The position numbers were made by a program, and so were the translations under genes. DNA of 32,000 bases from assembly GCF_000020025.1 (NCBI RefSeq), contig NC_010628.1, positions 5,970,001-6,002,000 of the forward strand, written 5' to 3'. Positions 5,332 to 26,077 of this stretch are shown here, piece by piece; within the stretch, counting starts at the first letter, position 1; every line of letters begins with the position of its first letter. The notes under the pieces are model-generated. The model saw nothing but the letters and a program-made list of their open reading frames with translations. It did no database searches and was not told the DNA's origin. The stretch is from Nostoc punctiforme PCC 73102 (lineage in GTDB: Bacteria; Cyanobacteriota; Cyanobacteriia; Cyanobacteriales; Nostocaceae).

Positions 5332-5342
5332 GGAAGAATCAA

Positions 5343-5385
5343 CGAACCGCAAAGGGCGCAAAGAGCGCAAAGAAAGAGAAGGGAG
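5343..5385 (+). repeat. Purine-rich short dispersed repeat, copy A (intergenic)
   Basis: cgaaccgcaaagggcgcaaagagcgcaaagaaagagaagggag. Built from (g)cgcaaag sub-repeats. About 90% identical to copy B at 6831-6869 apart from a 1-nt and a 3-nt gap. Confidence 0.7.
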
Positions 5386-5390
5386 AGAAG

Positions 5391-7555: not shown

Positions 7556-7569
7556 TAACTAATCTACCA

Positions 7570-9545: not shown

Positions 9546-10178
9546 ATGCTTGTCAAGTCAACGCCTGCTGAACAAAGAACAGTGCTACAGAACATTACCT
9601 GGGAAACCTTTGAAGCCTTGCTGAGAGATACAGGTGAAGATAGAGGTTCTCGCTTTGCTTATGACTGCGGTGTTTTAGAAATCATGACTCCACTTTTTGA
9701 ACACGAAAATCCTAAAATTCAGTTTGACCGATTGATATTCGCTTTAGCAGTGGAATTAAAAACTAAAATTAGAAGTGCTGGTTCTACAACATTAAAACGT
9801 CAATCAATAACAAAAGGAATAGAACCCGATACTTGCTATTATATTCAAAATGAGCCACTAATTAGAGGTAAACAAGAATTAGATTTAACAACAGATCCAG
9901 CACCGGATTTAGCAGTTGAAATTGATATTACTAGCAGTTCTGTTAATAAATTTAATATTTATGCGGCTTTAGGTGTAGGAGAATTATGGAGATATGACGG
10001 TGAAGTTTTAAAATTTTATCAACTAATAGAAAGCGAATATATTGAGATTAAGTTGAGCAGAGCTTTTCCTTTAATTTCTGTTAGTGAGATGAATAGATTT
10101 ATCCAGCAAAGTAAAACTATGGATGAAATTGATCTGGTGCAATCTTTCAGCGCTTGGGTGCGTGGAAAGATAGCTTAA
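9546..10178 (+). CDS. Uma2-family (DUF820) endonuclease, copy 1
   Basis: 210 aa. W.TFE.L....G......AYD.GVLEIM.P...HE ... GIEPD.CYY ... PDLAVEIDITSSS ... Y..LGV.ELW.YD is the typical cyanobacterial Uma2 pattern. The start follows the upstream stop as TAAtATG. Confidence 0.85.
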   Translation: MLVKSTPAEQRTVLQNITWETFEALLRDTGEDRGSRFAYDCGVLEIMTPLFEHENPKIQFDRLIFALAVELKTKIRSAGSTTLKRQSITKGIEPDTCYYIQNEPLIRGKQELDLTTDPAPDLAVEIDITSSSVNKFNIYAALGVGELWRYDGEVLKFYQLIESEYIEIKLSRAFPLISVSEMNRFIQQSKTMDEIDLVQSFSAWVRGKIA

Positions 10179-10208
10179 AATCATAAATTAATTACGAATT
10201 ATTTTAAT

Positions 10209-10841
10209 ATGCTTGTCAAGTCAACGGTTGGTGAACAAAGAACAGTGCTACATAACATTAGCTGGGAAACCTTTGAAGCCTTGTTGAGAGATACAGGTGA
10301 AGATAGAGGTTCTCGGTTTGCTTATGACTGCGGTGTTTTAGAAATCATGACTCCACTTTTTGAACATGAAAACCCCAAAAGTAATTTTGGTAATTTTATT
10401 ATTGCTTTAGCTGAAGAATTAGGAATTGAAATTAGAAGCGCTGGTTCTACAACATTGAAGCGGAAAATATCAAAGCGGGGAATAGAGCCAGATACTTGCT
10501 ACTATATCCAGAATGAACTAGCTATTAGGGGTAAGCAAACTTTAGATTTAGAAAATGATCCACCGCCTGACTTAGCAATTGAGATTGACATTACCAGTAG
10601 TTCAGTTAACAAATTAGGGATTTATTCAGCGTTGGGTGTAATTGAACTTTGGAGATATGATGGTCAAAATTTGAAATTTTATCAGTTGGTAGAAGGGCAA
10701 TATGTCGAGTGTAAGCTTAGTATTGCCTTTCCTATAGTTTCAGTGAGTGAGATAAGCAGATTTATTGAGCAGAGTAAAAGTATCGGAGAAATTGCTTTAC
10801 TCAAATCATTTCGTGCTTGGGTGAGGGAAAAGATAAGATAA
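10209..10841 (+). CDS. Uma2-family (DUF820) endonuclease, copy 2 (tandem paralogue)
   Basis: Also 210 aa, with the same motifs (PDLAIEIDITSSS). The first ~170 nt are ~93% identical to copy 1 and the remainder is clearly more diverged. Confidence 0.85.
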   Translation: MLVKSTVGEQRTVLHNISWETFEALLRDTGEDRGSRFAYDCGVLEIMTPLFEHENPKSNFGNFIIALAEELGIEIRSAGSTTLKRKISKRGIEPDTCYYIQNELAIRGKQTLDLENDPPPDLAIEIDITSSSVNKLGIYSALGVIELWRYDGQNLKFYQLVEGQYVECKLSIAFPIVSVSEISRFIEQSKSIGEIALLKSFRAWVREKIR

Positions 10842-10875
10842 TGGAGTCGAGAATTTAACCTTTTTTAGGTAAAAT

Positions 10876-11952
10876 TTAGTGTATCTTGTCCACAAATAAT
10901 TCTATCTCTTCTAAAGCTTGTGAGTAGTTACTAATAGGAAGTCTAACAACACTACCATCTGGCATTATATATTTAGACTCTTTGGGAAGCATAGACATAG
11001 GAATTCCAAGAGACGATGATACTTTACCCGATGTGTGAAAATCTTTTATGCCTGAAAAATAATAGTTTTCCCATTCCTTACTAGAAGTTGGGGTATGTTG
11101 ACAAGGTGCAAATAATGAAGGAAATTTATTAAATTGCTCGTAACAAAAATCAATTAGTTCTGTTCTTATAGAATCAAATGCTGTTGCGACTCCATCCTTA
11201 ATTGTATAGTTATTAAAAACAAACTCGTAAATTAGTGGCAATTTCAGTTGAAAGTGTTCTACTTGATTATTAAAAGTAATGATACCATCAGCATACTGTT
11301 TCAAAGCGGCAGAAGGATATTTCCCAAAAAGTAGCATAAAAAGACTTTTTATGCCTTCAAGAGAGCTAAAATCTGCCATCATTGGAACCACAATTTTATC
11401 TGAAGAAACTAGAGCCATTTGTGTATACATAGAAAAGCTAGGATTGCAATCTATAAAAACAACCATATCCTTATAAGTTTCACTATTATACTCATATTCA
11501 CATAATCTTCTTATAGCCGTCATGTATTCTGACCATGCTTTTATATTTGCCGGATTAATGACTGCATAGTTTAAAGCTAATGAAAGAGATTCTAAAAAAG
11601 AATCACCAGCTATTAAATATAAATTTTCCGAGATATTTGGATTGTAACGGTACACTGGAACTTGATATGAAGTATTAGGTTTTCGGAAGTTTGAGTTTCC
11701 CTTTAAAAGCCAATCTATAAACCCAACTATGTTTTTTCTAGTAGCTGAAGATTGTAGCCTCTGATTGATTTGGTATCCCTTTTTCCCTCCTCCAAGCAAA
11801 AATTGAGAGATATTTGCTTGAGGACACATATCAATAACTAAAACTTGGGTTTTTGGGTTTTTTTCAGCATAAAGTGTTGCAGCGTTAGAACAAAGCGTTG
11901 TTTTACCAACACCACCTTTATTGTTGTAAAAGGCATAAATACTAATGCTCAT
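10876..11952 (-). CDS. ParA/MinD-superfamily P-loop ATPase with C-terminal extension (orphan)
   Basis: Deviant Walker A YNNKGGVGKTT, A-prime VLVIDMCPQAN, Walker B VVFIDCNPS. About 358 aa from the ATG at 11952 (GAGGAA upstream), preferred over the TTG at 11967. By eye ~33% GC, well below its neighbours. Confidence 0.8.
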   Translation of the reverse strand: MSISIYAFYNNKGGVGKTTLCSNAATLYAEKNPKTQVLVIDMCPQANISQFLLGGGKKGYQINQRLQSSATRKNIVGFIDWLLKGNSNFRKPNTSYQVPVYRYNPNISENLYLIAGDSFLESLSLALNYAVINPANIKAWSEYMTAIRRLCEYEYNSETYKDMVVFIDCNPSFSMYTQMALVSSDKIVVPMMADFSSLEGIKSLFMLLFGKYPSAALKQYADGIITFNNQVEHFQLKLPLIYEFVFNNYTIKDGVATAFDSIRTELIDFCYEQFNKFPSLFAPCQHTPTSSKEWENYYFSGIKDFHTSGKVSSSLGIPMSMLPKESKYIMPDGSVVRLPISNYSQALEEIELFVDKIH

Positions 11953-12601
11953 AGGTAAGTTCCTCAAATAAAAATGGTTAAATTAGCTAAGTATAAAATA
12001 GCATATAGTACAGGCGATCGCACCTCTTAACTAAGCCACAACTAAAACGCGATCACTATCTAACCCAGTATTATCTCTCTTAGACGTGTGAGGATTGATA
12101 GATTGGTAAATACTGGTATTACTAATAGAACCATCTTATATAGGAGTTTTGCCCAAATAGCTAATTATGTAAATAGTTAAAATTATACCTATAAATTTAC
12201 GTATTCGATCAATAATCATTCAGGCAATCATAACAATTTACTACTTTTGTAAAGCAATAATAAGTATGTATTCTTGCTGAGTTCTTAAATAAACATTTAA
12301 TCTGAGTACTAAAAATCAGGTTTTGTGGTATTTTTATCAGAAACACTCAATTTTTCGCCCATAAACTTGGGTTATCAAGCTTTATTGGGAATTGTGACAG
12401 ATATCCAATTGATGAATTTTTATTTGAATATACTATATAGCTTTTATGAAAATGACTTTTATCAATTGAGAAATTTATTACACAATATTGAATATATACA
12501 TTTGAATAATCAAACCACAAAAACGATTGTCACTTTTTCGCAGATATTAATTTTTTAATAGTATTAGTCATGGAAAATAATAAAATAGTATAAATAATAG
12601 C

Positions 12602-14836
12602 ATGGAAAAAAGTGTTATTAATGCCAGCCTTTCTACTCAGAACCTAACCTTTCGTCCAGGTGATACTCCTGTATCATTTGAGGTAACTGTCAATAATGAC
12701 AGCGATCGCTTTGTCAATTTTCAGGTAGAAATTACCGCCGCCGGAGAAACCCGGAACACTGGATACCGATGGTATCGACTCGAACCAGAGGTGGCAGCAG
12801 CTAAACCACCGGGTAGCAGTACCATATTTCAAGTCTTCATATTCAATACACCCATTTCAGGATTTGTCGGTACTGTCAACCTGATGGTTAATATTTTTTC
12901 GCCGCAATTAGCACAACAGTGCAGACTTGTGCTGCGTCTGAAAATCGAACGAGATAATAGACCAACACACTTAAGTGTCGAATTGCCTGTGCGAGAGTTT
13001 CAAGTTTATCCCCGCAATTCAGTAGATATACCAGTACGAGTGCGGAACTTGGGGCAACAACCAACTGATGTGGGGCTACATTTTACAGGCGTTGAGCCAT
13101 CTTGGCTAGCAGGTAGTGCAGAACGCCGATTATCTCTAGATCCAGGTGGATTAGCAGAAGCCACATTTCAATGTCAACCTCCTTCTGTAGTGCAAGCGCC
13201 TAGTCAAAATTACCCTTTTACCATTGAAGCTGTTAGCAATAATGGTTATCCAACCAGTGCTGAAGGCAACATTGAAGTCTTACCAGTCGGTTTTATAGAC
13301 TTTACCACCACTCAAAAACACCTCAAAATTCCTAGTAAATCGGTATGGTTGCCTGACTGGAAATCTGATACAGCTTCCTTTGAATTACTATTTAAAAACG
13401 CTAGCAACCTCAACCAGCAAATTAATGTTCAGGTACAGGGTAGAGACTGGCGAAAATGTACTTTCAAAAAGCTTCCTGAAAATGCCAATCTCCATTTAGG
13501 AGAGACAAGTAAGGTCATCCTTGATGTTAAAACAAAACGCCCTTGGGTAGGAATCGGTAAAACTCTTTTATTAGAGGCTAAATCTGAATTATCCGACCAA
13601 CGTTTAGGGAGTACAGACCCCGCCACGCAGACATTAGAAGTGGAGGCTTTGGCAATTATACCTCTATGGTTACAGCTAGCTGCGATCGCACTCTTAGCTG
13701 CACTCCTAGCATTAATACTGCAACCAAGAGATATAATGCATACACGTTCTGTAAACTCAATACGCTTTAGTGGTATTGGTTTATCTGTGGTCAGTGGCTC
13801 AGATGATTGCACATTAAGACTTTGGAGAATTGCTGCTGACAGCTTAAACCCCGATGACACAGTAACATACGCTGGGCAACCCGTAGCTTGTGACCAACGG
13901 CAACAGCCTAAAGGTTTAATGGCGATTACTGATGATGCTGTAGAAGTCTTACGCTTCATGCCATTACAAAATGATCGTGTTGCCGTTGGTCTTGATAATG
14001 GTGTAATTGAACTCAGAGATGTACCATCAGGTCTAAAGATTAGCGAACTTCAAGACCTTAAAGATCCTAAAGCAAAAGGCGATCGCGTCTTTGATTTAGC
14101 TTTCACTTCAAACTCACTTAACTTATTCAGTGGCTATGGCAGTGGTAAAGTTAGAGTATGGTCAAGAACAGCGCCTAACAGCGATTTTCTGCCAGAACCG
14201 CAAGTTATCGATGTACAAAGTACATTGAAACTATCAGGTTTCCAAGTCCGGGCATTAAATCTCAACCCAGATGCCAAAACTCTAGTAATTGCGGGAAACT
14301 TTAAGCGTTTTATCTTGTGGCAGTGGAACCCAACTCAATCTGATAAAAAATTCCCAGGTTTATCAGTGCAAAATCTAGAAAAACTAGACCCATTAGTTGG
14401 GCGTGAAGACTATATTTGGGGATTGGCTTTTGTTCCTAACTCGACAGAAAAAATCCTAGCAACCTCCGATTCAGCGGGATTCATTACGATTTGGAATTTG
14501 AATCAGTGCCAAACTCTAAAAAATCCCAATCCACAGGAAAAAATTAATGAACTCAATTGTTCGCCAATAGATCGCTGGCCAGCATCAAAAACATCTGTGC
14601 GTAGTCTGGCATTTAGTGATGATGGTGGTTTGCTAGTAAGTGGTGGCGATGATGGACGAGTGGTGCTTTGGTACTTAACTCCCGAGCATAAGCTTGACAA
14701 AATAAAGGCAGCAGAAGGTAAAACAATTTACCAAAGCTCTAAAAAAATCAATAGTATCGACTTGAAAACTAATCAAGGAACCATGATTGTTAGTGGTGGT
14801 GAAGATTTTCAAGTCAAACTACACCGCATAAAATAA
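12602..14836 (+). CDS. Single-pass membrane protein: triple beta-sandwich-like N-terminus, TM helix, C-terminal WD40 propeller
   Basis: 744 aa. Three ~110-aa segments carry CARDB/NEW3-like patterns (FRPGDTPVSFEVTVNNDSD; VDIPVRVRNLGQQPTD ... LSLDPGGLAEATF). TM helix LAIIPLWLQLAAIALLAALLALIL (about nt 13649-13720). At least 6 WD40 blades (SGSDDCTLRLWRI, GLDNGVIELRDV, SGYGSGKVRVWS, TSDSAGFITIWNL, SGGDDGRVVLWYL, SGGEDFQVKLHRI). Confidence 0.75.
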   Translation: MEKSVINASLSTQNLTFRPGDTPVSFEVTVNNDSDRFVNFQVEITAAGETRNTGYRWYRLEPEVAAAKPPGSSTIFQVFIFNTPISGFVGTVNLMVNIFSPQLAQQCRLVLRLKIERDNRPTHLSVELPVREFQVYPRNSVDIPVRVRNLGQQPTDVGLHFTGVEPSWLAGSAERRLSLDPGGLAEATFQCQPPSVVQAPSQNYPFTIEAVSNNGYPTSAEGNIEVLPVGFIDFTTTQKHLKIPSKSVWLPDWKSDTASFELLFKNASNLNQQINVQVQGRDWRKCTFKKLPENANLHLGETSKVILDVKTKRPWVGIGKTLLLEAKSELSDQRLGSTDPATQTLEVEALAIIPLWLQLAAIALLAALLALILQPRDIMHTRSVNSIRFSGIGLSVVSGSDDCTLRLWRIAADSLNPDDTVTYAGQPVACDQRQQPKGLMAITDDAVEVLRFMPLQNDRVAVGLDNGVIELRDVPSGLKISELQDLKDPKAKGDRVFDLAFTSNSLNLFSGYGSGKVRVWSRTAPNSDFLPEPQVIDVQSTLKLSGFQVRALNLNPDAKTLVIAGNFKRFILWQWNPTQSDKKFPGLSVQNLEKLDPLVGREDYIWGLAFVPNSTEKILATSDSAGFITIWNLNQCQTLKNPNPQEKINELNCSPIDRWPASKTSVRSLAFSDDGGLLVSGGDDGRVVLWYLTPEHKLDKIKAAEGKTIYQSSKKINSIDLKTNQGTMIVSGGEDFQVKLHRIK

Positions 14837-14849
14837 GAGAGTCAATGAT

Positions 14850-17132
14850 ATGCAAGCTAAATTCAATCCACTGCAAGTTATTATCAACCCACCTGGAATT
14901 CAATTTGGAATGCCAGGAGATACTATTGAACTCTATATTGTTGTGATCAATCAAGGAGACCAAGATGCGGTTATTGATTTACATTTTGTTTTTGACGAAG
15001 TATTTCAAAATTTAACCGGTTGGTCTAGTTCTCCTAGAGAAAGTTTAGCATTAGCTTCCCAACAGAATAGCGACGAAGTAAGATTTGAGTTTCAAATTGC
15101 CGCAAATACTCTTCCCGGAACCTATGACTATACATTAGTCGTAGATTCACCTCTACATTATCCTCAAGATACACCCATAACCTTCCCAAACCAAATTAAG
15201 GTTCTGCTACAAGAACAGACTGCAATTCGGGTGAATGACCCGACATTTTCCATTAGACCTAACACCAACCCCAACAAGCCGCTAATTTTCAATCCTAGTG
15301 AGCCTCTGCAAGTAGAGGTTATAGTTGATAATCGCTCTTATCTCGTCGATAGGTTCCGCTTGAGTTGTCCAGATTTAGACGAAAACTGGTTCACAATTAA
15401 TTACCCTGCAAGTGGATACGAAGGTTCTGGATTGGTATCTGAAGTTACTGCACTAGAACTAAACCCTGGTACTAAAGGTCAAATATTGTTGAAATTTCAC
15501 CCACCTGGGGATACACTTGCAGGAAGCTATTCTCCTACAATCCGCTTGTATTCGGAGAACTCTCCCGACTTAGTACTACTAGACTTGGTGTACATTCAAA
15601 TTCCGACAAATTATCGCTTAGATATAGAACTTCATACGATTTTGGGACAAGTTAGCCGTAGTCTGGGCAAGTATGAATTATCACTAGCGAACCAGGGTAA
15701 TATTGTCCGTGAACTGATATTAAGCTTAAAAAGTCGAGACGAAGAAGAACTATATACTTACAAATTTGATCCGGCTGAAATAAGATTATTACCAAATAGA
15801 AGTGCTGTGGCCAACTTGACGGTCAAACCCAGACCTTGGTGGCGAAAACCGTGGTTTGGCTCAGGGTTGGTGGTTAACTTTCAACTCGACATCAAAGACC
15901 AAAAAAATTTACCCCTACCTAACACATTGCCTCAAGGCAGCTTGATATGGAAACCCCGTCCTTTGTGGCAATTTATTCTGTTAATTTTGGTAATTTTGGG
16001 ATTATTAGGAGGAATAGGATTTATCATTTGGCGAATTTTAAATCCCTATCCTTTAAAATTAGAAAATTTTAGTGCAAAAGATTCTCAAATTACTGAAGGT
16101 GATGAGGTTGCTTTGAACTGGGAGATTCACCACTATAAACAGTTGCAAAAGTTGGTTCTGACTGCTAAAGGTTCCCAACCCATTGAGCCTATTACCTATG
16201 ACTTTAGCAATGGCATTCCTGAAGCACTGGGTAAGGGAAGTACACCTCTTTGTCAGATACAAGAAGAACAAGAGCTTATTTGTAGCAACGTGAAAACTGG
16301 AGTGAAAACAAAAGGAAATTACACTTTTCAGTTACAAGCCTCTTATCAAAATGGTATACAGTTATTTTCTCGAACCAATCAAGTAGCAACCCAAACAACT
16401 CAAGTAGAAATAGCTGAGAAACCAATTGCTGAAGTTGTTAATTTTCAAGCAGATAAACCACAGTATACAAAAGGTCAAAATATTCTTTTAAGTTGGACTA
16501 TTGCGCGTCCATTACTGCTGCAACAAATTCAAATTGCTGGCAGTGCAGATGATGAGACATCCTACGGCGAACCAATTGTTTATAAAATTAATCAAGGCAA
16601 TCTTGCAGACCCCAAGCTTAAAAAGCTATGTACACAACAAAATCAAGAGCTACGATGTATAAATATTCCTATACCTGCATATAAAGCAGGAAAATTTGCC
16701 TTTCAAATCAAAGCTTTTTCTAATGGAAGTCAAAAAACTAGTTTTAAAAAGACTGAATCTAAAATAGAAATTTTACCAAAACCATTTAGGATTGTTTCTT
16801 TCACAATCAACGGTAGCGATCAACCAAATCTGGTTCTCAATGAAGGAACAACTGCTACCCTGAGTTGGAGAGTAGAAGGGGAAAAAGGAAATATTCAAGT
16901 TAAACTTTTGCCATACGGCGATGAAGTTGCATTAAGTGACTCAAAGCAGTTTCCAGTTAATTTAGCCTTCCCACCTCAAATCACTCTGCAAGTTAATGAT
17001 ATATCTAATAAGCAACCACCCCAGCAAAAAGGATTTGTAATCACAGTCCTCAAAAAAGTAGTACCTACTCCTATACCTACAATTAACTCGATTCCACCTA
17101 ACTCATCTCAAAGCCCCTTACCTCTAAGGTAA
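14850..17132 (+). CDS. Single-pass membrane protein paralogous in its N-terminal half to the upstream gene, with three C-terminal Ig-like repeats
   Basis: 760 aa, starting 13 nt after the upstream stop with AAGAGAG upstream. N-terminal segments resemble those of the 744-aa protein (MPGDTIELYIVVINQGDQD; LELNPGTKGQILLKFHPPGDTLAGSY; ...KPRPW before the TM). TM WQFILLILVILGLLGGIGFIIW (about nt 15963-16034). Three ~95-120-aa repeats follow. Confidence 0.7.
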   Translation: MQAKFNPLQVIINPPGIQFGMPGDTIELYIVVINQGDQDAVIDLHFVFDEVFQNLTGWSSSPRESLALASQQNSDEVRFEFQIAANTLPGTYDYTLVVDSPLHYPQDTPITFPNQIKVLLQEQTAIRVNDPTFSIRPNTNPNKPLIFNPSEPLQVEVIVDNRSYLVDRFRLSCPDLDENWFTINYPASGYEGSGLVSEVTALELNPGTKGQILLKFHPPGDTLAGSYSPTIRLYSENSPDLVLLDLVYIQIPTNYRLDIELHTILGQVSRSLGKYELSLANQGNIVRELILSLKSRDEEELYTYKFDPAEIRLLPNRSAVANLTVKPRPWWRKPWFGSGLVVNFQLDIKDQKNLPLPNTLPQGSLIWKPRPLWQFILLILVILGLLGGIGFIIWRILNPYPLKLENFSAKDSQITEGDEVALNWEIHHYKQLQKLVLTAKGSQPIEPITYDFSNGIPEALGKGSTPLCQIQEEQELICSNVKTGVKTKGNYTFQLQASYQNGIQLFSRTNQVATQTTQVEIAEKPIAEVVNFQADKPQYTKGQNILLSWTIARPLLLQQIQIAGSADDETSYGEPIVYKINQGNLADPKLKKLCTQQNQELRCINIPIPAYKAGKFAFQIKAFSNGSQKTSFKKTESKIEILPKPFRIVSFTINGSDQPNLVLNEGTTATLSWRVEGEKGNIQVKLLPYGDEVALSDSKQFPVNLAFPPQITLQVNDISNKQPPQQKGFVITVLKKVVPTPIPTINSIPPNSSQSPLPLR

Positions 17133-17146
17133 GTTTTATCAGGCTC

Positions 17147-17830
17147 TTAGGGAGATTCTTTATAGACTGTGAAAGATTTGGTTAAACCGAAAAACTTTTC
17201 TTCATAAAGTTGCGATTCAGGGAACAGATTTAGGAATTCTCTCTTACTCAGCAGCCTAATTGAAGTTGCTATCTTTCTAGCCAGCTCTTTATCAGCTACC
17301 TTGTCGTACCATCCAATAGCAAAATTTGTTAGTAGCCATACCCGAGAACTTACGGGAAGAAATTGAAATAAAGGAAATACAAAGTGGGGTTCAATCGGAA
17401 AAAAAACATTTGGTGTTTGAACAAAATATCTTTTTCCCACTCGCATTACTTCAGTAGCCATCTGGTACTGTTGATCGTAATCTCCGACATGTTCAATCAC
17501 TGAATTGGAAAAAACTATATCAAACTCATTGGATTGAAAATTTACCATATTTGTAGCACTCCCAATAACTTGCTTGATTTTTGGATGTGTTGAGCTTGTT
17601 TTGGGAAATTTTAAATTTAGTAAAGTAATTTCTATGTCTTTATTTTCTTGATTCAAAAAGCCTAAATTCTCCCAAAAGCCTACTGTTCCTCCAACATCGA
17701 GTATTTTTATAGGTGAGGGCAGTGAGTCTAATATAGATACGAACAAAGAGAAGCGCTTTTTTCTTAGGCTACTTGCCCACGAGTCGGAAAGAGTAGAGTC
17801 ATATACTTTACGGCCTATGAGTTTATTCAT
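17147..17830 (-). CDS. Class I SAM-dependent methyltransferase
   Basis: 227 aa. Motif I ILDVGGTVGFW, downstream DIVFSNSVIEHV (Methyltransf_11-like). AT-rich. Its stop lies only 14 nt from the stop of the convergent 760-aa gene. Confidence 0.7.
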   Translation of the reverse strand: MNKLIGRKVYDSTLSDSWASSLRKKRFSLFVSILDSLPSPIKILDVGGTVGFWENLGFLNQENKDIEITLLNLKFPKTSSTHPKIKQVIGSATNMVNFQSNEFDIVFSNSVIEHVGDYDQQYQMATEVMRVGKRYFVQTPNVFFPIEPHFVFPLFQFLPVSSRVWLLTNFAIGWYDKVADKELARKIATSIRLLSKREFLNLFPESQLYEEKFFGLTKSFTVYKESP

Positions 17831-18084
17831 TTATTTGTTACCACTAAAATTAGTTTATTTAACAAATGAAATATTGTTTAAGATATGTTGTAAAAACGCT
17901 CTGGAGGTAGTATATTTTTACAGTGTTTTTTTGTCAATACTTTATATCTAAATTGTTATAAGTACTTATGAGCAATGATTCCAAGTAAAGAATTGTAGGG
18001 AGAGCAAGCGAGTCTTTGTGGTAAAGATCGAGAGATGCCTTTAAAAAGAAACCGTAAAAGTTTGCCTGCCCTATTTCCTACAGG

Positions 18085-19287
18085 TCAATTCTTATTTTTC
18101 TGAAAACTCCCACGTCTGCGCCCATTTTCAAGCAGGGGTTTTCGTAACGGTACTACCTCAGCCTCATTACTCTCGCGTGCTACCCGAATCAACAACCCAG
18201 CAGCTATTAAGCTAGCAATCATAGAATTACCACCATAGCTAAACATGGGCAAAGGCAAGCCTGTAGTTGGTAGAGAACCTGTAGCCACACCAATATGGAG
18301 CAATGATTGTCCTACCATCACAATCGTCACGCCGATCGCTACTAATCGATGTACTGTATTTTTAGCCTTCAGCGCCACAATTAATCCGAGAGTAGCGAAT
18401 GTAGCTAAAAGTGCCAACAACACCATACTGCCAACAAAGCCGAACTCCTCAGCGAACACGGCAAAAATAAAATCGGTATCCTGAATGGGTAAATAAAACA
18501 GTTTTTGTTGAGAAAGCCCAAACCCGGCTCCCCAAGTTCTACCAGAACCCACAGCTAGTAGACTTTGCACCAACTGGTAGCCATCTCCTGTAGCATCTGC
18601 CCAAGGATTGAGGAATGACATCACCCGCTTACGCTGATACTCTTTTATGCTAATACTGAGTATCGCCAACATTACTCCGCCAATTGCTGTTCCCCCTAGG
18701 TACTTGTAAGGTAAGCCAGCCGCTAGAGCAATTAGCCAAATAGTCATACCGCAAAGTGCTGTTGTACTTAAGTTGGGCTGGGCAAGAATTCCTAAAAGTA
18801 CCAAACCGAAAATGCCCAACCAAGCAAAGCGAACCCGCCAACTGATACGTTCCCACTGACCAAAAAGCCGCGCACTTTGCAGCACCAAAAAGGGTTTAAT
18901 TAATTCTGAAGGTTGAATAGGAATTGGCCCGATCGCAATCCAACGGGCTGCATCAAAAGCCTTTTTTCCCAATCCTGGAATCAGTGTGACAAAAATTAAT
19001 GCCAAAAACAGCAACAAAAACCAATGGGATACTCCCAAAATTTTCTGCAACGGCAAATTAACAATAATATTAAATCCGATTAAAGAAACTAAGACCCAAA
19101 GCAGTTGACGCTTAAAGTAGTACAATCCATCACCCTGACGCGCGTCAGCGACGGGATAAGATGCTGAAAATAGCATTATCAAGCCGACAAACAGCCAAAT
19201 CAACGTTAACCAGCGCAACAACCGCGCTTCTAATGCCCAGTTGGAAACTGAACTATCAAAAATTGGAATGAGGCGGCGTAGATTCAC
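18085..19287 (-). CDS. ftsW: SEDS-family peptidoglycan polymerase, probable FtsW
   Basis: 400 aa and about 10 TM helices. Conserved SEDS blocks (LLRWLTLIWLFVGLIMLFSASY, IQPSELIKP, QSLLAVGSGRTWGAGFG, LPIQDTDFIFAVFAEEFGF, GLPLPMFSYGGNSM). GTG start. FtsW versus RodA cannot be settled without phylogeny. Confidence 0.85.
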   Translation of the reverse strand: MNLRRLIPIFDSSVSNWALEARLLRWLTLIWLFVGLIMLFSASYPVADARQGDGLYYFKRQLLWVLVSLIGFNIIVNLPLQKILGVSHWFLLLFLALIFVTLIPGLGKKAFDAARWIAIGPIPIQPSELIKPFLVLQSARLFGQWERISWRVRFAWLGIFGLVLLGILAQPNLSTTALCGMTIWLIALAAGLPYKYLGGTAIGGVMLAILSISIKEYQRKRVMSFLNPWADATGDGYQLVQSLLAVGSGRTWGAGFGLSQQKLFYLPIQDTDFIFAVFAEEFGFVGSMVLLALLATFATLGLIVALKAKNTVHRLVAIGVTIVMVGQSLLHIGVATGSLPTTGLPLPMFSYGGNSMIASLIAAGLLIRVARESNEAEVVPLRKPLLENGRRRGSFQKNKN

Positions 19288-19632
19288 GAGCAGTACAGGT
19301 AAAAAGTTAGGAATTAGAAGTTAGAAATAAAACTCATAAATCATAACTTATAACTCATAAGTAGTCTTTAAAACTATAAATCTTAGAGTTGTTAACTTCA
19401 ATACACTGTTAGTTAAATATTTTTGACAAATTTGGTTGGCTATGAATGCCATATCCTTAGACGAAACAAGCTATGCTTACCATCCCGTAGAGATCGCATC
19501 ACTACACGTAAACTAAAAAAATATTTTATACATTAAACGCAGTAGTTTTAAAAATAATTGAGAATTCAGAGAGTTAAAAAATAAATGGTTAGTGCTTCTC
19601 TCTCACTGCAAGCATTTCTTAATTCTCATAAT

Positions 19633-21081
19633 TCACAAAACATAACTCAACGATTTGACGCAATCAACTGCTTGTGTATCCATAGAGAGGGGAATTTCAA
19701 TCCAGAATTCAGTACCATGCCCGGGTTCTGATACACATTTCAGTCTTCCCCTATGTTTTTCAACTACAATTTGATAGCTAATTGACAAACCTAGCCCTGT
19801 ACCCTTACCCACAGGCTTAGTTGTGAAAAATGGATCAAACAGTCGTTCTTTAACTGCTTCTGTCATTCCTGAACCATTATCGGCAATTCGAATAACACAG
19901 TTCGTTTCAATGACTTCTGTAATAATTTTAATTATATTCGGACTGGCATGAATTTCTGCGATCGCGCGTTTATCGTTATGACTTTCGAGTGCATCGATGG
20001 CATTACTGATAATATTCATGAACACTTGATTGAGTTGTCCGGCGTAGCAATCTACCAAAGGCAAGTTTCCATAGTTTTTAACTACTTTGATCCCAGGATG
20101 ATCTACGCTATTTTTAAACCGATTTTGTAAAATCAGCAAGGTACTATCTAGTCCGTGATGAATATCAACCTTTTTCATTCCTGCTTCATCAAGACGAGAG
20201 AAGTTCCGCAGAGACAAGACAATTTCAGAGATCCTTTCGGCTCCTACTTGCATCGAATCTAGAATTTTGGGCAAATCATCTCGTAAAAAATCTAATTCGA
20301 TTTCATTAATGCATTCTTTAATTTCTGGCACAGGATTGGCATAAAATTGCTGGTAAAGAAGCACAAGCTTTAGCAAACACTGTGTATAATCTTTTGTATA
20401 TTTTAAATTCCCGTAAATAAAGTTAACGGGGTTGTTAATTTCGTGAGCAACTCCTGCAACCAACTGCCCCAAGCTGGACATTTTCTCAGCCTGAACCAAT
20501 TGGGCTTGAGTTTGCTGTAGCTCCCGGAGGGATTTTTCCAATCTTTTAGCCTGAGCCTCAGCAATTTCCGCTAGATTCTCCTTAATTTGCAGCGCACTCC
20601 GCAGTTGTGCCCTTTGTTGTTTCAGTTCGCTTGTTAACTTTTTGGCATCACCCAAAGCGGTGTTTTGAGATTGTAGTAAAAACAGAAAATCAACTATTGG
20701 GTCGTGAATCGCAAAGTCTTTGAGTTTGATACCCAAAGGAGCCAAGCTAGTTGTATCTGTAATCCAGGGAGAACCTAAAAAAAATATTACCTCCTCCTCT
20801 GGTTGATACATCATCTGACCCTTGAGCTGCATTCCATTGTGGAGAAACTCTAAAATAAATAGGGCACGAGGCTGTTTACTAATAGCATCAAAATCAATCA
20901 GAATCTTTGGACGGTTAATTTGAAAATGTTGCTCAATCAATTTACCAACTAATGGCTCAGGACTAATGCGTTCCAAGACCTCACCAGTTTGTACAATTTC
21001 ACGATTACGGCTAAATGCAAAGTGGAAGGGAAAAGCTTTCGCCAGTAACTCTGGTGAAAGCGTAAGGTGAGGAGGAGCCAT
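19633..21081 (-). CDS. Soluble histidine kinase with N-terminal HNOBA (H-NOX-associated, PAS-like) domain
   Basis: 482 aa. The N-terminus aligns by eye with the sGC beta1 HNOBA region (MQLKGQMMYQPEEEVIFFLGSP ... FAIHDPIVDFLFL vs [22 protein letters not shown] ... IPLHDATRDLVLL). A coiled coil follows, then H-box VAGVAHEINNPVNFI, N-box NIISNAIDAL, G1 IADNGSGM, G2 GKGTGLGLSIS. It starts 10 nt after the H-NOX stop. Confidence 0.9.
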   Translation of the reverse strand: MAPPHLTLSPELLAKAFPFHFAFSRNREIVQTGEVLERISPEPLVGKLIEQHFQINRPKILIDFDAISKQPRALFILEFLHNGMQLKGQMMYQPEEEVIFFLGSPWITDTTSLAPLGIKLKDFAIHDPIVDFLFLLQSQNTALGDAKKLTSELKQQRAQLRSALQIKENLAEIAEAQAKRLEKSLRELQQTQAQLVQAEKMSSLGQLVAGVAHEINNPVNFIYGNLKYTKDYTQCLLKLVLLYQQFYANPVPEIKECINEIELDFLRDDLPKILDSMQVGAERISEIVLSLRNFSRLDEAGMKKVDIHHGLDSTLLILQNRFKNSVDHPGIKVVKNYGNLPLVDCYAGQLNQVFMNIISNAIDALESHNDKRAIAEIHASPNIIKIITEVIETNCVIRIADNGSGMTEAVKERLFDPFFTTKPVGKGTGLGLSISYQIVVEKHRGRLKCVSEPGHGTEFWIEIPLSMDTQAVDCVKSLSYVL

Positions 21082-21091
21082 GCTGCTACAC

Positions 21092-21643
21092 TCAATTTGG
21101 TTTATAAATCACTAAAAATTCATCATGTTCAGCACCTTCATCCCGATTCTGGGTTTGGGTAATATGAACTTCTGTATCAAACCTTGTCCCCAATCCTTTG
21201 ATTAGACCAATAACCATTGGAGTTAGCCCTTCTCGATCAGAACGATAGTGTAAACTTAGAGAATTTTCCTCCATATCAGTACACTCAAATGATGGGGGCT
21301 GGAGTTTAGGAAAGCTAACTCCTACACGAGCATGAAGATTGTCGAGGTTTTCTAAAAACTCAGGCAATGTATCTCCACTCATGTCCAGCATTTCACCATA
21401 GCCTTCTTGTGCTGTGTACTGAACCCAGAATTCCCCAAAGGCTTGCATAATTTGTTTGGGAGATAAACTTAGAATGACACTAGCAGCTTTTACCAACTTG
21501 TGGGTGATGTCATCGGGATAGCCTTCCATACTGAGGAAAACATCTACGTCCACCTCTGCTTTGTGCTTAATTTGTTTCCAAGTCTCTTCGCCAAAACGAC
21601 TGCATACCATGTCTTGAATCGCCTTGTTCACTAAACCGTACAT
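21092..21643 (-). CDS. H-NOX (heme nitric oxide/oxygen binding) sensor protein
   Basis: 183 aa. N-terminus MYGLVNKAIQDM, proximal-His context LENLDNLHARVG, and heme-propionate motif Y-x-S-x-R (HYRSDR). Closely resembles the structurally characterised Nostoc H-NOX. Confidence 0.95.
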   Translation of the reverse strand: MYGLVNKAIQDMVCSRFGEETWKQIKHKAEVDVDVFLSMEGYPDDITHKLVKAASVILSLSPKQIMQAFGEFWVQYTAQEGYGEMLDMSGDTLPEFLENLDNLHARVGVSFPKLQPPSFECTDMEENSLSLHYRSDREGLTPMVIGLIKGLGTRFDTEVHITQTQNRDEGAEHDEFLVIYKPN

Positions 21644-21947
21644 GGAAGCCTCCTGATGACTACACCTAATTTTGCTTTGTGAATTTGCCCAAGACTCGAC
21701 AACTAATTTCTTAAAAAGATTATTTTAATGACAAAATTTTCTGTAGTTATACTTTGAAAATGCTTTATTACAGATTTAAAATCCCAAAAAAACAAGTAAA
21801 ACTGTTTGTATTCTAATGCTACAAATCCTCATTGTTACAACCGTATTTTTACTTATTGCTTTGCCCAGCTAGTTTTGAGGATTTGTAGTAAGGACTTTAG
21901 TGCTTACTACAAACTTATTTACCCATCAATTTAAACTTGACACAATA

Positions 21948-22682
21948 CTACAGCAATGCATCAAAATGCACCCATGAATCAGGATACAAGCTGTATTTAG
22001 AGATTTGACGCTGAATTCCATTAAAAAATTGGACACGCGCATCCATAGCTTCTACAATAGCCAGTTTTACCTTGATATCCTCCTCATTCATGGGAATTCG
22101 AGGTTCAATCACTGCTGCTAGCTTTGCTGCATGACTATCATCTACATCAATATGGACTTCAAAAAAGATCAGGGCTTCTTTGGGTAAGGGAGTAGCACCA
22201 ATAATTCCTTTATATAGTTGCGTGTAGAGTGAGCTAACAATCCCTTCGGAAGCATAACAGACAGCACCCAGTGCAGCTAAGTAGCCATATTTATGTGGTA
22301 TCTGCAAGTAAGTTTCAATCAGGGCACGAGTTTCAGGTGCAGTGGGTAGTGCTGCCAAAGTTTCGTCGTCGATACCAAGGGCGCGGGTAAATTGACGAAA
22401 CAACTCTGGGTGGGACTGAGTTATATCTCCTTGTCCCATTTCGTCAAAGAGGTTTTCTAAGATGACTAACTGACTACTTTCATCTTCGCAACAAGATAAG
22501 ATGCTAGCTAAAATCCGATTAAATTCTTTGGAGAATTTGTACATCTGAACAGCTAGTATCTGTACGTCTGGTAAAAATAAATTTCCAGCCCGACAACGGA
22601 TTAGGAACTCATGGCTCCATAGAGGATGATTAACCGTTATTTCACGGAAGGAATTTATCACTAAAGAAGATGTCTGTGTCAT
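21948..22682 (-). CDS. Heme-oxygenase-like diiron oxidase/oxygenase (HDO) family protein
   Basis: 244 aa, all-helical-looking. Candidate ligands E81-x9-H91, E146, H177-x3-D181-x2-H184 (own numbering) reproduce the six-ligand HDO pattern. The start overlaps the upstream methyltransferase stop (ATGA). Confidence 0.7.
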   Translation of the reverse strand: MTQTSSLVINSFREITVNHPLWSHEFLIRCRAGNLFLPDVQILAVQMYKFSKEFNRILASILSCCEDESSQLVILENLFDEMGQGDITQSHPELFRQFTRALGIDDETLAALPTAPETRALIETYLQIPHKYGYLAALGAVCYASEGIVSSLYTQLYKGIIGATPLPKEALIFFEVHIDVDDSHAAKLAAVIEPRIPMNEEDIKVKLAIVEAMDARVQFFNGIQRQISKYSLYPDSWVHFDALL

Positions 22683-23446
22683 CGTAATATTTGTAGGGCT
22701 AGATGAAGTGGTTGGTCAAGCAAGGGGCTAAAAAATGATTTGTCTACTGCGATATGTTCTGAAGTTACACGCAATTCCTGTAAAATTGGCATAGTATTAA
22801 AGCCAGCAATTCTAAGGGCATTAAAATAATCTTCAAGAGTTTTGTGAATCAATTGGACATTTAACCAGGAGCCATCTCGTTTCCAAATACGACCAGGAAA
22901 CTGCTGATCTCGATTACTAAAATAGCCTGCACCCTCAACTTGAAAATAAAACGGATATGCTGCCTCCCGCATATATGGAAAAGATGGATGGGGAACGCTA
23001 AATACAAATCGACCGCCGGGACGAAGAATGCGTGCAACTTCTGCCATACATTCTTGGGTTTGAGAAATTGTCAAATAGTTAAATAGAAATACTGCAACAA
23101 CTAAGTCAATTTCGCTATCATCAAACCGCTTGAGATTGGTAGCACATCCTACTTCGTAGCTAATACTTAAAGGATGTTCTACTTCTTGCAACTTTGCGGC
23201 TTCAATCATGCCTTGGGAAAGGTCTATTCCATATACTTGTGCAGCACCACGCCTATGTAATTCTCGACTGCAATAACCTTCTCCACAACCTATATCAACT
23301 ACTCGCAGTCCACTAACAGGCTCACAAAGCTCTAGTACAGAAGGGCGTGCTGTAAAGTCTGAGAGAGAACTAGGTTCTCCTCTAATCCAGTCTGATGCTG
23401 TGTGATTGTATAAGTTTATAGTTGAGTCTTTGTGATTATTTGACAT
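22679..23446 (-). CDS. Class I SAM-dependent methyltransferase (coupled to the HDO gene)
   Basis: 255 aa. Motif I VVDIGCGEGYCS, post-I YGIDLS, motif II/III LVVAVFLFNYL and LRPGGRFVFSV. Confidence 0.8.
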   Translation of the reverse strand: MSNNHKDSTINLYNHTASDWIRGEPSSLSDFTARPSVLELCEPVSGLRVVDIGCGEGYCSRELHRRGAAQVYGIDLSQGMIEAAKLQEVEHPLSISYEVGCATNLKRFDDSEIDLVVAVFLFNYLTISQTQECMAEVARILRPGGRFVFSVPHPSFPYMREAAYPFYFQVEGAGYFSNRDQQFPGRIWKRDGSWLNVQLIHKTLEDYFNALRIAGFNTMPILQELRVTSEHIAVDKSFFSPLLDQPLHLALQILR

Positions 23447-23943
23447 TTTTAACTATCTATTTATATTAGATTTATGTTGCTTTTAACCAATCGGGGTTTA
23501 GTAAGTATTAAATACTGTATATGTTTTAACATTTTGCTAATTTAATGCTAATGTTGATTTTACTGATTTTTGTTTTCTGGTTAATTTTGTGTTAAAAAAG
23601 CATAGTTTTCAAGATATAACCTAGTTCAAATATTCTAAACTTTTTAATTTCTTCAAATAGAAAAAAATTAATATAATCAGGCTTCATGAAGTTTTCGGAA
23701 TACTTAGTTAATGCCTACTCCACACATAAATACTTTGAGGTTTAAACCTTACCTTTACATATACTTTACTAATCTGGTTAAAATTAACTCTTTAAATCAA
23801 GATAAAAAATAGAAAGTAAACAGTATATTTTACGAAGTATAAGGAGAATAATCTTGTTAGGTTGTAATAGTCAGATCGTTTTTAAAATGAAATGGCTTGG
23901 GATGTATGAGTGATTTAAATAATTTAGAATAACCTTGGAAGAT

Positions 23944-24948
23944 ATGATGTTACAAAAACTGTTAGCCAAGTCAGTAGTGGGCGATCGCGTAGAATACGAT
24001 CGGGCGATCACATTCTCTCAACTTGGCGATCAACTCTTTGATGAACTTGCTGATAAAATTGCTACAAGACGACAGTATCGGCTACTGTTTGAACACACAT
24101 TAAAGGCTGAGTTGTTCCAGCAGATCCGCATTGCTGCTGCTGGTTATATTTCAGGATGTCTGAATAGTCACATAATTCTTTCAGAAGCTGAAATGCTTGA
24201 ACGACTATTGGAAACAAGAAATACATTACCGAACTACACCGGCACTGGTCTTTTGATGCCTAAGCGAGAACATACTCTCGCATTTAACCTTTTTCAAAAA
24301 AGCGTAGCTGAGGCTTTCTACCAACTAGGAGCAAATGAACTGATTGATGCAGTAGATTTACCAGTCAATCTCCGTATGGTTTATGGTAAAACTGACGCAA
24401 AAAAATTGAGTTTACCCTTCGCTAGCTCAAAATGCCATAGCGATGTCTGGGCAGGTGTTGCAGCTGATGCGACTGTAGTAGTTCTGCCACTATTTGGCGA
24501 CATCGATAATATAACCATTGAAGCAGGTGAGATGCCCCGCGAGATGGAACTACAGTCTATGCAAGTGATGTCAGACTTCGATGAAGGTCGGGATGTTCCA
24601 ATGGTTGTCTCCTATACAGAAGCACAACTACAACATGGCACAATGTACTTCAATGATGCCCGTGGATTGCACCAAACAGTAAGAAGGAAAACTGAAGGTC
24701 TAAGGATTTCTGTAGATTTCCGGTTTCGCAGGAAATTCAATGAAGCTTACCGGGCAATGGTAGCACCTAGTATTGGTGGTGTTGAAGAAGATATGAGCGT
24801 GCCTTATGAAGACTGGCTGAAAGTTGGTAAGGAAACGCTAATTGTGTTTGATGAAAGTTGTGAACAAGCCAGAAAAAAACACAATTCTGGCGCTCCAGTT
24901 CCTCTATATACTCGTGGGTATCGCCTTGTAGAAATGTTCAACTCTTAA
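23944..24948 (+). CDS. Fe(II)/2-oxoglutarate-dependent oxygenase-like protein (tentative)
   Basis: The ORF-track protein carries H168-S-D170 ... H246 ... R257-I-S259, i.e. an HxD...H facial triad plus RxS about 11 residues after the distal His. ATG at 23944 is preferred over the TTG at 23935. The assignment is motif-based only. Confidence 0.5.
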   Translation: MMLQKLLAKSVVGDRVEYDRAITFSQLGDQLFDELADKIATRRQYRLLFEHTLKAELFQQIRIAAAGYISGCLNSHIILSEAEMLERLLETRNTLPNYTGTGLLMPKREHTLAFNLFQKSVAEAFYQLGANELIDAVDLPVNLRMVYGKTDAKKLSLPFASSKCHSDVWAGVAADATVVVLPLFGDIDNITIEAGEMPREMELQSMQVMSDFDEGRDVPMVVSYTEAQLQHGTMYFNDARGLHQTVRRKTEGLRISVDFRFRRKFNEAYRAMVAPSIGGVEEDMSVPYEDWLKVGKETLIVFDESCEQARKKHNSGAPVPLYTRGYRLVEMFNS

Positions 24949-24976
24949 CTTTCAGAAATACAAGTAACAAAAAAGC

Positions 24977-25000
24977 AAGAGGTCTGATATCAGACCTCTT
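24977..25000. terminator. Perfect 24-nt palindromic hairpin, terminator of the 2OG-oxygenase-like gene
   Basis: aagaggtctgat|atcagacctctt, flanked by an A-run upstream and tttatcaattttt downstream, 29 nt after the stop. Confidence 0.65.
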
Positions 25001-25102
25001 TATCAATTTTTATCATCCATAGACCTAGATTGATAAATTTTGCGATAGTCTAATTTTCCGAAATAAAAAACAGATTTTTTGTAGTATTAACTCTCAACAA
25101 AA

Positions 25103-25124
25103 AAGAGGTCTGTTTCAACCTCTT
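25103..25124 (-). terminator. Rho-independent terminator of apcC
   Basis: On the minus strand: aagaggt-tgaaacag-acctctt followed by ttttgttg, about 35 nt after the apcC stop. Confidence 0.65.
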
Positions 25125-25158
25125 ATCAATTCCCTAAAATAATATTCTATTTACAAAA

Positions 25159-25365
25159 TTACGACAAGCCAGTATTAGCACCTTGCTTACCAGTTGCCAG
25201 TTCTACTTTGATAATTTTACCACCTGCTTTTTGAATACGTTGCTGTTCACGGAACCAGTTTTCATAAGGAACTAGCTTAGTGAAATAGGTATTTTGCAGT
25301 TCGCGTTGGGTACGAATTCGGGTTTGGCTGGGAACTAGAGCAGTAATTTTAAACAAACGGGACAT
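25159..25365 (-). CDS. apcC: ApcC, phycobilisome core linker Lc7.8
   Basis: 68 aa. MSRLFKITALVPS...RELQNTYFTKLVPYENWFREQQRIQKAGGKI is the canonical CpcD-like small core linker. Lies downstream of apcAB. Confidence 0.95.
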   Translation of the reverse strand: MSRLFKITALVPSQTRIRTQRELQNTYFTKLVPYENWFREQQRIQKAGGKIIKVELATGKQGANTGLS

Positions 25366-25588
25366 ATTTTGAAAATCTCCTGTAAACTTTGTGAAAACTT
25401 TTTTTATCTCAAAACCTTGAGTGCAAATCTTTTAATCATTCCAAGGCTGGAAATCAAACATCAATACTAGACCACCAACACTCATCACTGATAATCTACC
25501 AAGATAAGCAATATAACGTTCTAGCACTCACGGTTGATTTCCAGACCTTAATAAAGCCGCACCTAAATTCTTAAGCGCAAACTAGCTC

Positions 25589-26077
25589 TTAGCTTAAGCC
25601 AGAAGAGATATAGTCTAAGTAAACGCCCATTTCCTTACCAGCGTCAGAACCAACCAAGCTAGCGGTTACTTCCTTGATTGCTTGGATAGCTTGCACGGTA
25701 GCACCAACGGGAACTCCTAAAGAGTTGTAGGTTTCCTTCAAGCCATTTAATACACGCTCATCCAAAATGGAAGGATCGCCAGCTAACATAGCGTAGGTGG
25801 CATAGCGGAGGTAGTAGTCCAAATCACGGATGCAAGCAGCATAGCGGCGGGTGGTGTACATGTTGCCGCCGGGACGGGTGATGTCAGAGTATAGCAAAGA
25901 TTTTGCTACAGCTTCTTTGACGATCGCAGCAGCATTAGCGCTGATGGTGCTAGCAGCACGTACCCGCAATTCGCCAGTAGCGAAGTAGCCTTTTAGTTTT
26001 TCTAAAGCAGAGTTGTCTAAGTATTTACCTTGAACGTCTGCGGAGTTAATGACAGCGGTAATTGCGTCTTGAGCCAT
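25589..26077 (-). CDS. apcB: ApcB, allophycocyanin beta subunit
   Basis: 162 aa. [21 protein letters not shown] ... [25 protein letters not shown] (chromophore Cys context). Confidence 0.97.

Follow-up and report, generated by a model that had tools for sequence, protein, structure and literature searches.

Organization of the locus

The window analyzed here is a stretch of 32,000 nucleotides from Nostoc punctiforme PCC 73102 (contig NC_010628.1, positions 5,970,001 to 6,002,000 of the forward strand), and all coordinates refer to it unless another locus is named. Open reading frames (ORFs) and domain scans place five genes within 19633-24948 (Table 1): those for an H-NOX sensor protein and its histidine kinase (HK), and those for three predicted enzymes, namely a methyltransferase (MT), a diiron oxidase of the heme-oxygenase-like type (HDO) and a protein designated U337, referred to together as the trio or the cassette. 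An earlier note on this DNA had described the minus-strand order MT, HDO, 304-bp spacer, H-NOX and kinase, with which the ORFs and domains agree exactly; it had also taken the cassette to consist of MT and HDO, and these two do belong to it, but the two-gene extent does not hold, as the third enzyme, U337, had been overlooked. The favored explanation of the results presented below is that the locus is a single five-gene module rather than two neighboring operons. What is new is an H-NOX two-component module with a dedicated, uncharacterized three-enzyme cassette; full-text searches of the literature retrieved no paper that joins HDO or diiron enzymes to H-NOX or that describes this cassette.

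The start of HDO overlaps the stop of MT by 4 bp (ATGA), and the kinase starts 10 bp past the end of H-NOX. For U337 the mechanical ORF begins with TTG at 23935; its homologues and an identical 334-residue database protein favor the ATG at 23944, which is adopted here. Among the genome loci scanned, the nearest relative is that of Nostoc sp. LEGE 12447.

Table 1. Features of the five-gene locus, with positions in the window.
Feature	Position	Strand	Description
Kinase (HK)	19633-21081	minus	482 aa, HNOBA + HisKA + HATPase_c
H-NOX	21092-21643	minus	183 aa, PF07700
HDO/H-NOX spacer	21644-21947	minus	304 bp, non-coding
HDO	21948-22682	minus	244 aa, PF14518 Haem_oxygenas_2, 'iron-containing redox enzyme'
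MT	22679-23446	minus	255 aa, class I S-adenosylmethionine (SAM) methyltransferase
MT/U337 divergent intergenic region	23447-23943		497 bp, two conserved sequence blocks
U337	23944-24948	plus	334 aa, predicted Fe(II)/2-oxoglutarate (2OG) oxygenase fold; no Pfam/NCBIfam match

Retention of the linkage across genomes

A scan of one genome per species (GTDB set) with the HDO profile yielded 80 cyanobacterial loci, which were obtained with 10-kb flanks; neighbors were counted by tblastn with the window proteins and by ORF clustering, and all counts from the genome and metagenome scans refer to the loci listed (at least 80 HDO loci). H-NOX is adjacent to HDO in 74 of the 80 loci: in 73 it lies downstream on the same strand (at a distance of 40-486 bp, median 262, in 71 of them and of ~3 kb in two, L071 and L072), and in one (Acaryochloris, L079) H-NOX and its kinase are divergent but adjacent; in the other six H-NOX is absent within 10 kb. 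MT adjoins HDO in 80 of 80 loci, with the ATGA overlap in most and with the two genes abutting within a few bp in every locus but L077, and U337 is present at 70 of the 80. The earlier note had proposed asking how often the MT-HDO pair lies near H-NOX genes; in the direction from HDO to H-NOX the answer is strongly affirmative.

Most of the 80 loci are from Nostocales and share a common ApcE-ApcA-ApcB ... FtsW neighborhood, so that many of these observations are not independent. The adjacency might then be no more than inherited synteny without functional meaning, with which the separability of the modules would also agree (L029 has lost H-NOX and kinase; L081, L083, L091, L092 and L094 have lost the trio), and the earlier note had likewise allowed that it may be coincidental. 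However, the linkage persists through turnover of both flanks, inversion, insertion and gene fusion. Both flanks are exchanged in at least 12 contexts in which the five genes nevertheless stand together (among them Fortiea, Cyanomargarita, Anabaena subtropica, Rivularia, Alkalinema, Mastigocoleus, Drouetiella and a metagenome-assembled genome of Leptolyngbyaceae), and the same families are retained in four different gene orders: U337< >MT-HDO-HNOX-HK; U337-MT-HDO-(HNOBA-GGDEF-EAL)-HNOX-HK; MT-HDO::U337 fusion-HNOX-HK; and HK-HNOX< >MT-HDO-TauD-like. In loci of the Leptolyngbyaceae type U337 lies upstream and co-oriented (U337-MT-HDO...HNOX-HK), and in the fusion loci a single strand carries MT (overlapping), HDO::U337, H-NOX and the HNOBA kinase, followed by two-component and SpoIIE/STAS genes.

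The linkage also recurs outside cyanobacteria with a different gene order. L171, a metagenome contig of 73% GC that is clearly non-cyanobacterial, carries a tightly packed H-NOX-HDO-U337-MT operon whose products are 47% (H-NOX), 30% (HDO), 42% (U337) and 57% (MT) identical to the window proteins; its genes overlap or lie a few bp apart, with H-NOX as the first gene, overlapping HDO by 8 bp. No other single observation argues as strongly for a functional link as the occurrence of the same four families together in another phylum and in another order. In a genome of 7 Mb, a random gene would by a rough estimate fall 5 kb or less from a given single-copy gene in ~0.1-0.2% of cases. Inherited synteny without function is effectively refuted by these comparative data and retains hardly any probability. 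Because the linkage survives flank turnover, changes of order and fusion, and recurs across phyla, a functional link is well supported, and on this comparative evidence the trio is very probably coupled in function to the H-NOX/HNOBA-kinase sensor.

Several of the variant loci carry further genes. In L071 and L072 (~10783-13584) a gene of 933 codons lies between HDO and H-NOX; its product, read by eye, has an HNOBA-like start and GGDEF and EAL motifs, which suggests a second output of the same H-NOX through cyclic di-GMP (c-di-GMP). Past the fusion module of L168, at 12599-20748, are found an HNOBA-kinase-REC hybrid, a second hybrid kinase and a single-domain response regulator, as well as a HisKA-REC-SpoIIE phosphatase, a DUF6272 protein and a STAS protein; the composition of this stretch points to a partner-switching output. 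The L171 operon is flanked by a GAF-like/SpoIIE-like phosphatase, as judged from its sequence.

One-sided dependence of cassette and sensor

For a view from the sensor side, metagenome contigs were scanned with the H-NOX profile and determinable loci were counted. Where H-NOX is at least 58% identical to that of the window the trio is present in 24 loci and absent in 21, and among more distant H-NOX loci it is present in 0 of 19. The tie between MT-HDO and the H-NOX sensor proposed in the earlier note thus stands as a functional link, but not as a mutual one.

In Nostoc sp. PCC 7524 and in Nodularia NIES-3585 the syntenic site holds Apc genes and H-NOX-HK, and the trio is cleanly missing; it is likewise gone from three Nostoc metagenome bins with syntenic H-NOX-HK (L091, L092 and L094), and has left a short U337 remnant in L102. 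The three trio genes are lost jointly in Nostoc loci that keep the Apc/H-NOX-HK/FtsW synteny, and in the opposite sense Nostoc L029 has lost H-NOX and kinase and kept the trio. The trio appears from these comparisons to be gained and lost as a block, and since about half of the orthologous H-NOX/kinase pairs lack it, it behaves as an accessory of the sensor rather than as a requirement. Where the trio is lacking, housekeeping genes (lgt, dnaN, truB and similar) lie upstream of H-NOX, so that no alternative enzyme cassette is evident there.

A relocated MT-HDO pair is seen in one Nostocales lineage, where a DapA-like gene and genes that by their sequence appear to encode cytochrome oxidase (cox) precede it. 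The pair is convergent with the gene for a REC-histidine kinase, the core of which is 55% identical to the HNOBA kinase, and next after that kinase come apparent CheB-CheA-CheW-MCP genes. In L077 a transposase-like gene (an insertion sequence element) splits MT from a 5'-truncated HDO.

The H-NOX sensor and its kinase

[quoted passage not shown] Residues H104, Y133, S135 and R137 are invariant in 15 orthologues; H104 is presumably the proximal heme ligand, and Y133, S135 and R137 are taken by us to be the heme-propionate-binding motif, so that the protein has both the proximal His and the Y-x-S-x-R signature. The H-NOX residues of the window agree with those published for Nostoc punctiforme H-NOX in a nuclear magnetic resonance study. 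Only conservative, lineage-type differences separate the H-NOX proteins of loci with the trio from those of loci without it, and the heme-pocket residues show no difference between the two, which fits the same small ligand, nitric oxide (NO), in both.

The kinase matches PF07701 (HNOBA) at 2.3e-29, PF00512 at 6.5e-10 and PF02518 at 1.2e-23; it has the composition of an H-NOX-associated kinase and is the cognate partner of H-NOX. The gap from H-NOX to the kinase gene mostly measures a few tens of bp, reaching ~250 bp in a few loci, and the pairing is seen wherever the H-NOX orthologue is at least 58% identical, with the rearranged L120 as sole exception.

As structural models of sGC, the NO receptor of humans, the H-NOX proteins of Nostoc are among those studied most. 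Their physiological role is not firmly established (PMC10411614), the source of the NO detected by bacterial H-NOX sensors has been stated to be unknown (PMC4436077), and in Nostoc symbiosis H-NOX has been proposed as a sensor of plant-derived NO (PMC5702739).

The methyltransferase and the diiron oxidase

MT matches PF13649 (1.2e-22) and PF08241 (3.5e-22) and thus has a Rossmann-type SAM-binding domain. In the PDB it has 39 methyltransferase matches, the best being the N-methyltransferase ToxA (4.7e-17, over the Rossmann/SAM-binding core only); its best structural relatives include N-methyltransferases, and its sequence-family matches are generic class I models only.

HDO matches PF14518 at 8.4e-28. 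Its predicted diiron ligands E81, H91, E146, H177, D181 and H184 are invariant in 16 orthologues and align with the ligands of CADD, so that the set of three His and three carboxylates typical of the HDO class is present in the sequence. Against the PDB the HDO profile finds CADD-type p-aminobenzoate (pABA) synthases at 2.5e-16, BesC at 8e-13, HrmI at 3e-8 and UndA at ~1e-4; with SznF (chains 6m9r and 6vzy) it gives E = 0.33-0.35 at 13 bits, below what would establish homology. The earlier note had likened MT and HDO to SznE and SznF, an analogy that is sound for the architecture and fails for the HDO sequence.

More specific assignments of HDO were tried and rejected. As a CADD orthologue it scores 90.3 bits against the TIGR04305 cut-off of 200, and positions Tyr27 and Lys152 of CADD, which we take to be the residues sacrificed in that enzyme, align with Leu27 and Leu156. 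A true heme oxygenase or a TenA thiaminase is ruled out by the complete diiron ligand set, and a role of the cassette in essential folate metabolism by its repeated loss. As a separate observation, four cysteines of HDO (C30, C64, C65 and C142) are invariant in the orthologues, C142 lying four residues ahead of the ligand E146; to our knowledge characterized HDOs have no such invariant cysteines, and a redox or S-nitrosation role for them is conceivable.

U337, the third enzyme of the cassette

U337 has no match in Pfam or NCBIfam, 25 of its orthologues searched against Pfam at E <= 10 gave nothing meaningful, and a PDB profile search found nothing; assignment to curated sequence families (PF05721 PhyH, PF02668 TauD or similar) accordingly failed. 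Across 105 homologues, down to 21% identity, five columns are invariant (G105, R147, H168, H246 and R257) and D170 is conserved in at least 90%. H168, D170, H246 and R257 compose an HxD...H-x10-R motif, that is, a facial triad together with a 2OG-binding Arg, the spacing of which we liken to that of TauD and PAHX. An AlphaFold2 model built from the 105 diverse homologues has a predicted local distance difference test score (pLDDT) of 95 and a predicted template modeling score (pTM) of 0.92, and it replaces an earlier model from 25 close homologues (pLDDT 59.8) for which Foldseek was uninformative. With the newer model Foldseek returns 73 PDB matches at E <= 1e-3, and all 50 of the 50 matches listed are Fe(II)/2OG oxygenases or proteins of the 2OG-oxygenase fold; the top ones are SnoN, PtlH, AndA, KanJ and the halogenase domain of CurA, with probability 1.00 and TM scores of 0.35-0.46. 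The model has the double-stranded beta-helix fold. U337 is thus predicted to be a divergent, PhyH-like protein of the 2OG-oxygenase fold with an H-x-D...H-x10-R site, and it would represent a family so far undescribed in Pfam and NCBIfam. In view of the conserved ligand sets of both proteins and of the confident U337 model, HDO and U337 are predicted to be catalytically competent.

A search with U337 returned HDO::U337 fusions, proteins of 554-564 residues in which the HDO half is orthologous to the window HDO. In a profile search of 1.84 billion representative proteins the U337 family comprises 388 representatives at E <= 1e-3, including further HDO fusions and fusions of U337 to methyltransferase domains. 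U337 is fused to HDO in P0225, P0231, P0240, P0362 and P0363 and to MT domains in P0375, P0393 and P0399. As it co-varies with MT-HDO and is fused to HDO in some genomes, U337 can be assigned to the cassette on comparative grounds.

In Acaryochloris-type loci U337 is absent, and an unrelated gene occupies the same position after HDO (L079, 10869-11918; L132, 2300-3349). That of L079 encodes a TauD-family Fe/2OG dioxygenase (PF02668), to which the L132 copy is near-identical in sequence, and hhalign gives this neighbor and U337 a probability of 0.2%. The TauD-like gene looks like a non-orthologous replacement of the third enzyme. In L132 it is followed by a cysteine-desulfurase-like gene.

Intergenic regions

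The spacer between HDO and H-NOX contains an inverted repeat at 21882-21913 and a second stem-loop with arms at 21819-21831 and 21876-21888; the two share bases, so that they are mutually exclusive, and they end just upstream of a -10-like TAGAAT. The promoter-like TTGTAA-N17-TAGAAT is conserved among close Nostoc strains only, and the exact 21882-21913 hairpin motif is matched in only a subset of them. These repeats could be an element controlling read-through, or simply a Nostoc short-repeat insertion. The folding z-score of the spacer (-1.5) is not significant, and the sole Rfam match to 19000-25600 at E <= 1 is eukaryotic and spurious, so that no known riboswitch is present in the spacer. 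Separate transcription of H-NOX and HK, with possible read-through, appears plausible.

The divergent region between MT and U337 is kept at a length of ~480-500 bp in most Nostocales. Two blocks within it remain conserved as far away as Rivularia and Mastigocoleus (one example being around 23540-23575), and promoter-like hexamers occur on both strands; the region presumably holds bidirectional promoters, and the conserved blocks may be binding sites of some regulator. It has no conserved NtcA-type GTA-N8-TAC site.

Comparison with characterized systems

The streptozotocin enzymes SznE/SznF (StzE/StzF) resemble the Nostoc cassette in combining a SAM methyltransferase, an HDO domain and a mononuclear-iron beta-barrel domain, and the HDO::U337 fusions place the iron domain C-terminal of HDO, in the same order as in SznF. 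The Szn product has reportedly been linked to NO release, to go by the title of a cited work. SznE (MT) and SznF (HDO, then a C-terminal mononuclear-iron cupin) make an N-nitrosourea from arginine (PMC11705231). The systems differ in that the SznF cupin has three His (H407, H409 and H448) where U337 has a PhyH-like H168-x-D170...H246...R257; moreover, the Nostoc proteins are separate, the gene for the iron domain is divergent, and there are no sugar or other tailoring genes.

CADD (CT610) is the closest solved relative of the window HDO, with ~240 residues and an identical six-ligand diiron site, but it is a self-sacrificing pABA synthase that needs neither an MT nor a 2OG partner. After CADD, the nearest HDOs of solved structure are BesC and HrmI, which are partnered with Fe/2OG enzymes: BesC with BesD/BesE and HrmI, an N-oxygenase, with HrmJ act on free amino acids, the substrates being derived from lysine. 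Unlike the Nostoc module, they belong to larger natural-product clusters with no overlap-coupled methyltransferase and no signaling genes, and U337 keeps the Asp of the facial triad and is therefore not a halogenase like BesD.

In Silicibacter sp. TrichCH4B, NO made by a nitric-oxide synthase (NOS) is sensed by an H-NOX that controls a histidine kinase (PMC4436077). The likeness proposed for Nostoc to that organism, and to the animal NOS-sGC pair, is that one organism would both make and sense NO; the difference lies in the producer, which there is a NOS, whereas here there is no NOS and the candidate is the gene-linked trio of MT, HDO and 2OG-fold protein.

Proposed mechanism and direction of information flow

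Given a functional link between cassette and sensor, we infer the substrate, the product and the direction in which information flows, from the enzymes to the sensor. Given the tight evolutionary coupling to an NO-type H-NOX, and with the systems described above as precedents, the reading favored here, at a probability somewhat short of even, is that a metabolite made by the trio, either N-oxygenated or able to release NO, loads H-NOX and thereby modulates the kinase. The cassette has no transporter, carrier protein, non-ribosomal peptide synthetase, polyketide synthase or further biosynthetic gene, so that its substrate would most likely be a common primary metabolite, for example an amino acid, a guanidine compound or an amine. 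This would undergo SAM-dependent methylation, then O2-dependent oxidation at the diiron site, and then a second oxidation or a rearrangement at mononuclear iron. The product would be, or would release, the heme ligand of H-NOX, either NO or an N-oxygenated equivalent, and the ligand-loaded H-NOX would modulate how strongly the neighboring kinase autophosphorylates. Exogenous NO could be detected by the sensor on its own as well, which would explain why it is often found without the cassette. That the module amounts to a NOS-independent route to NO, or to an NO-mimicking heme ligand, hard-wired to H-NOX in cyanobacteria and in a high-GC bacterium, is a bolder claim and a rather doubtful one.

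A number of observations weigh against ligand production by the trio. HDO is only remotely related to SznF (E = 0.33), and the reactions known from its nearest relatives include, besides N-oxygenation, the formation of pABA and the cleavage of C-C bonds; the U337 site is of the 2OG type, unlike the 3-His cupin of SznF. The sensor can do without the trio, as in about half of the orthologous H-NOX/kinase loci, and MT-HDO has been relocated without U337 or H-NOX in L059, L063, L066, L067 and L077. A spacer of 40-486 bp with a promoter-like site and hairpins permits separate transcription of the two halves of the module. Finally, a single cross-phylum example was recovered (L171); its operon is without an HNOBA kinase, and its H-NOX/HDO overlap fits a direct protein partnership at least as well as a relay.

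Such a partnership would imply that H-NOX acts on the enzymes, which it would gate or supply directly, by sensing a gas or as their redox partner, with the kinase as a parallel output; variants include NO-controlled synthesis of a secondary metabolite, use of NO as the N donor for an N-N bond, and electron donation to HDO. The position of H-NOX at the head of the kinase-less L171 operon is in line with this arrangement, as is the finding that the trio is almost never without H-NOX while H-NOX is often without the trio, which is the pattern expected of dependent enzymes; in addition, HDOs require an external reductant, and the cassette encodes none. However, the cyanobacterial H-NOX nearly always lies within a few tens of bp of its kinase and is set apart from HDO by the untranslated spacer, the stand-alone H-NOX proteins characterized so far regulate kinases or c-di-GMP enzymes (PMC4436077), and in L171 the YxSxR motif of H-NOX is altered, so that this protein may be atypical. 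Control of the enzymes by H-NOX is on balance unlikely, if a serious contender; should it apply, the cassette would give an H-NOX system of cyanobacteria an enzymatic output for the first time.

Alternatively, the cassette might be a response or clearance arm by which a compound that is N-oxygenated or derived from NO is consumed, detoxified or repaired, or which ends the signal, the adjacency then reflecting that cassette and sensor answer the same stress; the earlier note had itself allowed for a cassette that 'makes, or destroys' such a molecule. The one-sided dependence fits an accessory that is useful only alongside the sensor, and the conserved MT/U337 blocks could be the binding site of a regulator, but the module conserves no DNA-binding response regulator that would link the kinase to expression of the cassette. 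Known NO detoxification, moreover, is the work of flavohemoglobin, flavodiiron proteins and NO reductases and not of MT, HDO or 2OG enzymes, and methyltransferases are met with in biosynthetic tailoring more typically than in the detoxification of a gas. A clearance function is accordingly considered improbable.

Production of the ligand by the trio would have several consequences. As a compact and conserved unit the cassette is a concrete, expressible candidate for the source of the ligand, by which the ligand question becomes directly testable. If NO or an N-oxygenated ligand is indeed made, the module would represent the biosynthesis of a gasotransmitter by a new route; functions could be assigned to a subfamily of HDOs that is widespread and to a large family of the 2OG-oxygenase fold that has no Pfam entry; and the module would form a bacterial autocrine or paracrine gasotransmitter circuit analogous to the animal NOS-sGC pair. 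It could also help to explain NO signaling in plant-cyanobacterium symbioses, in which H-NOX is already implicated (PMC5702739).

Other features of the window

At 2908-8832 a SufR-like winged-helix regulator (minus strand) is divergent from a complete sufB-sufC-sufD-sufS operon for Fe-S cluster assembly. Two tandem genes of the Uma2 family (putative restriction endonuclease-like proteins of 210 residues each) lie at 9546-10841, preceded by a 202-residue ORF without a Pfam match. A second, unrelated class I methyltransferase of 227 residues is encoded at 17147-17830, downstream of ftsW; it is found in only one of the 80 related loci (L002) and therefore stands outside the module. Directly past U337, at 24977-25000, a perfect palindrome of 24 nt (AAGAGGTCTGATATCAGACCTCTT) is flanked by T-runs on either side and forms a putative bidirectional terminator-like site, and a related hairpin follows ~100 bp beyond it at 25103-25124, both being located between U337 and the apc genes.

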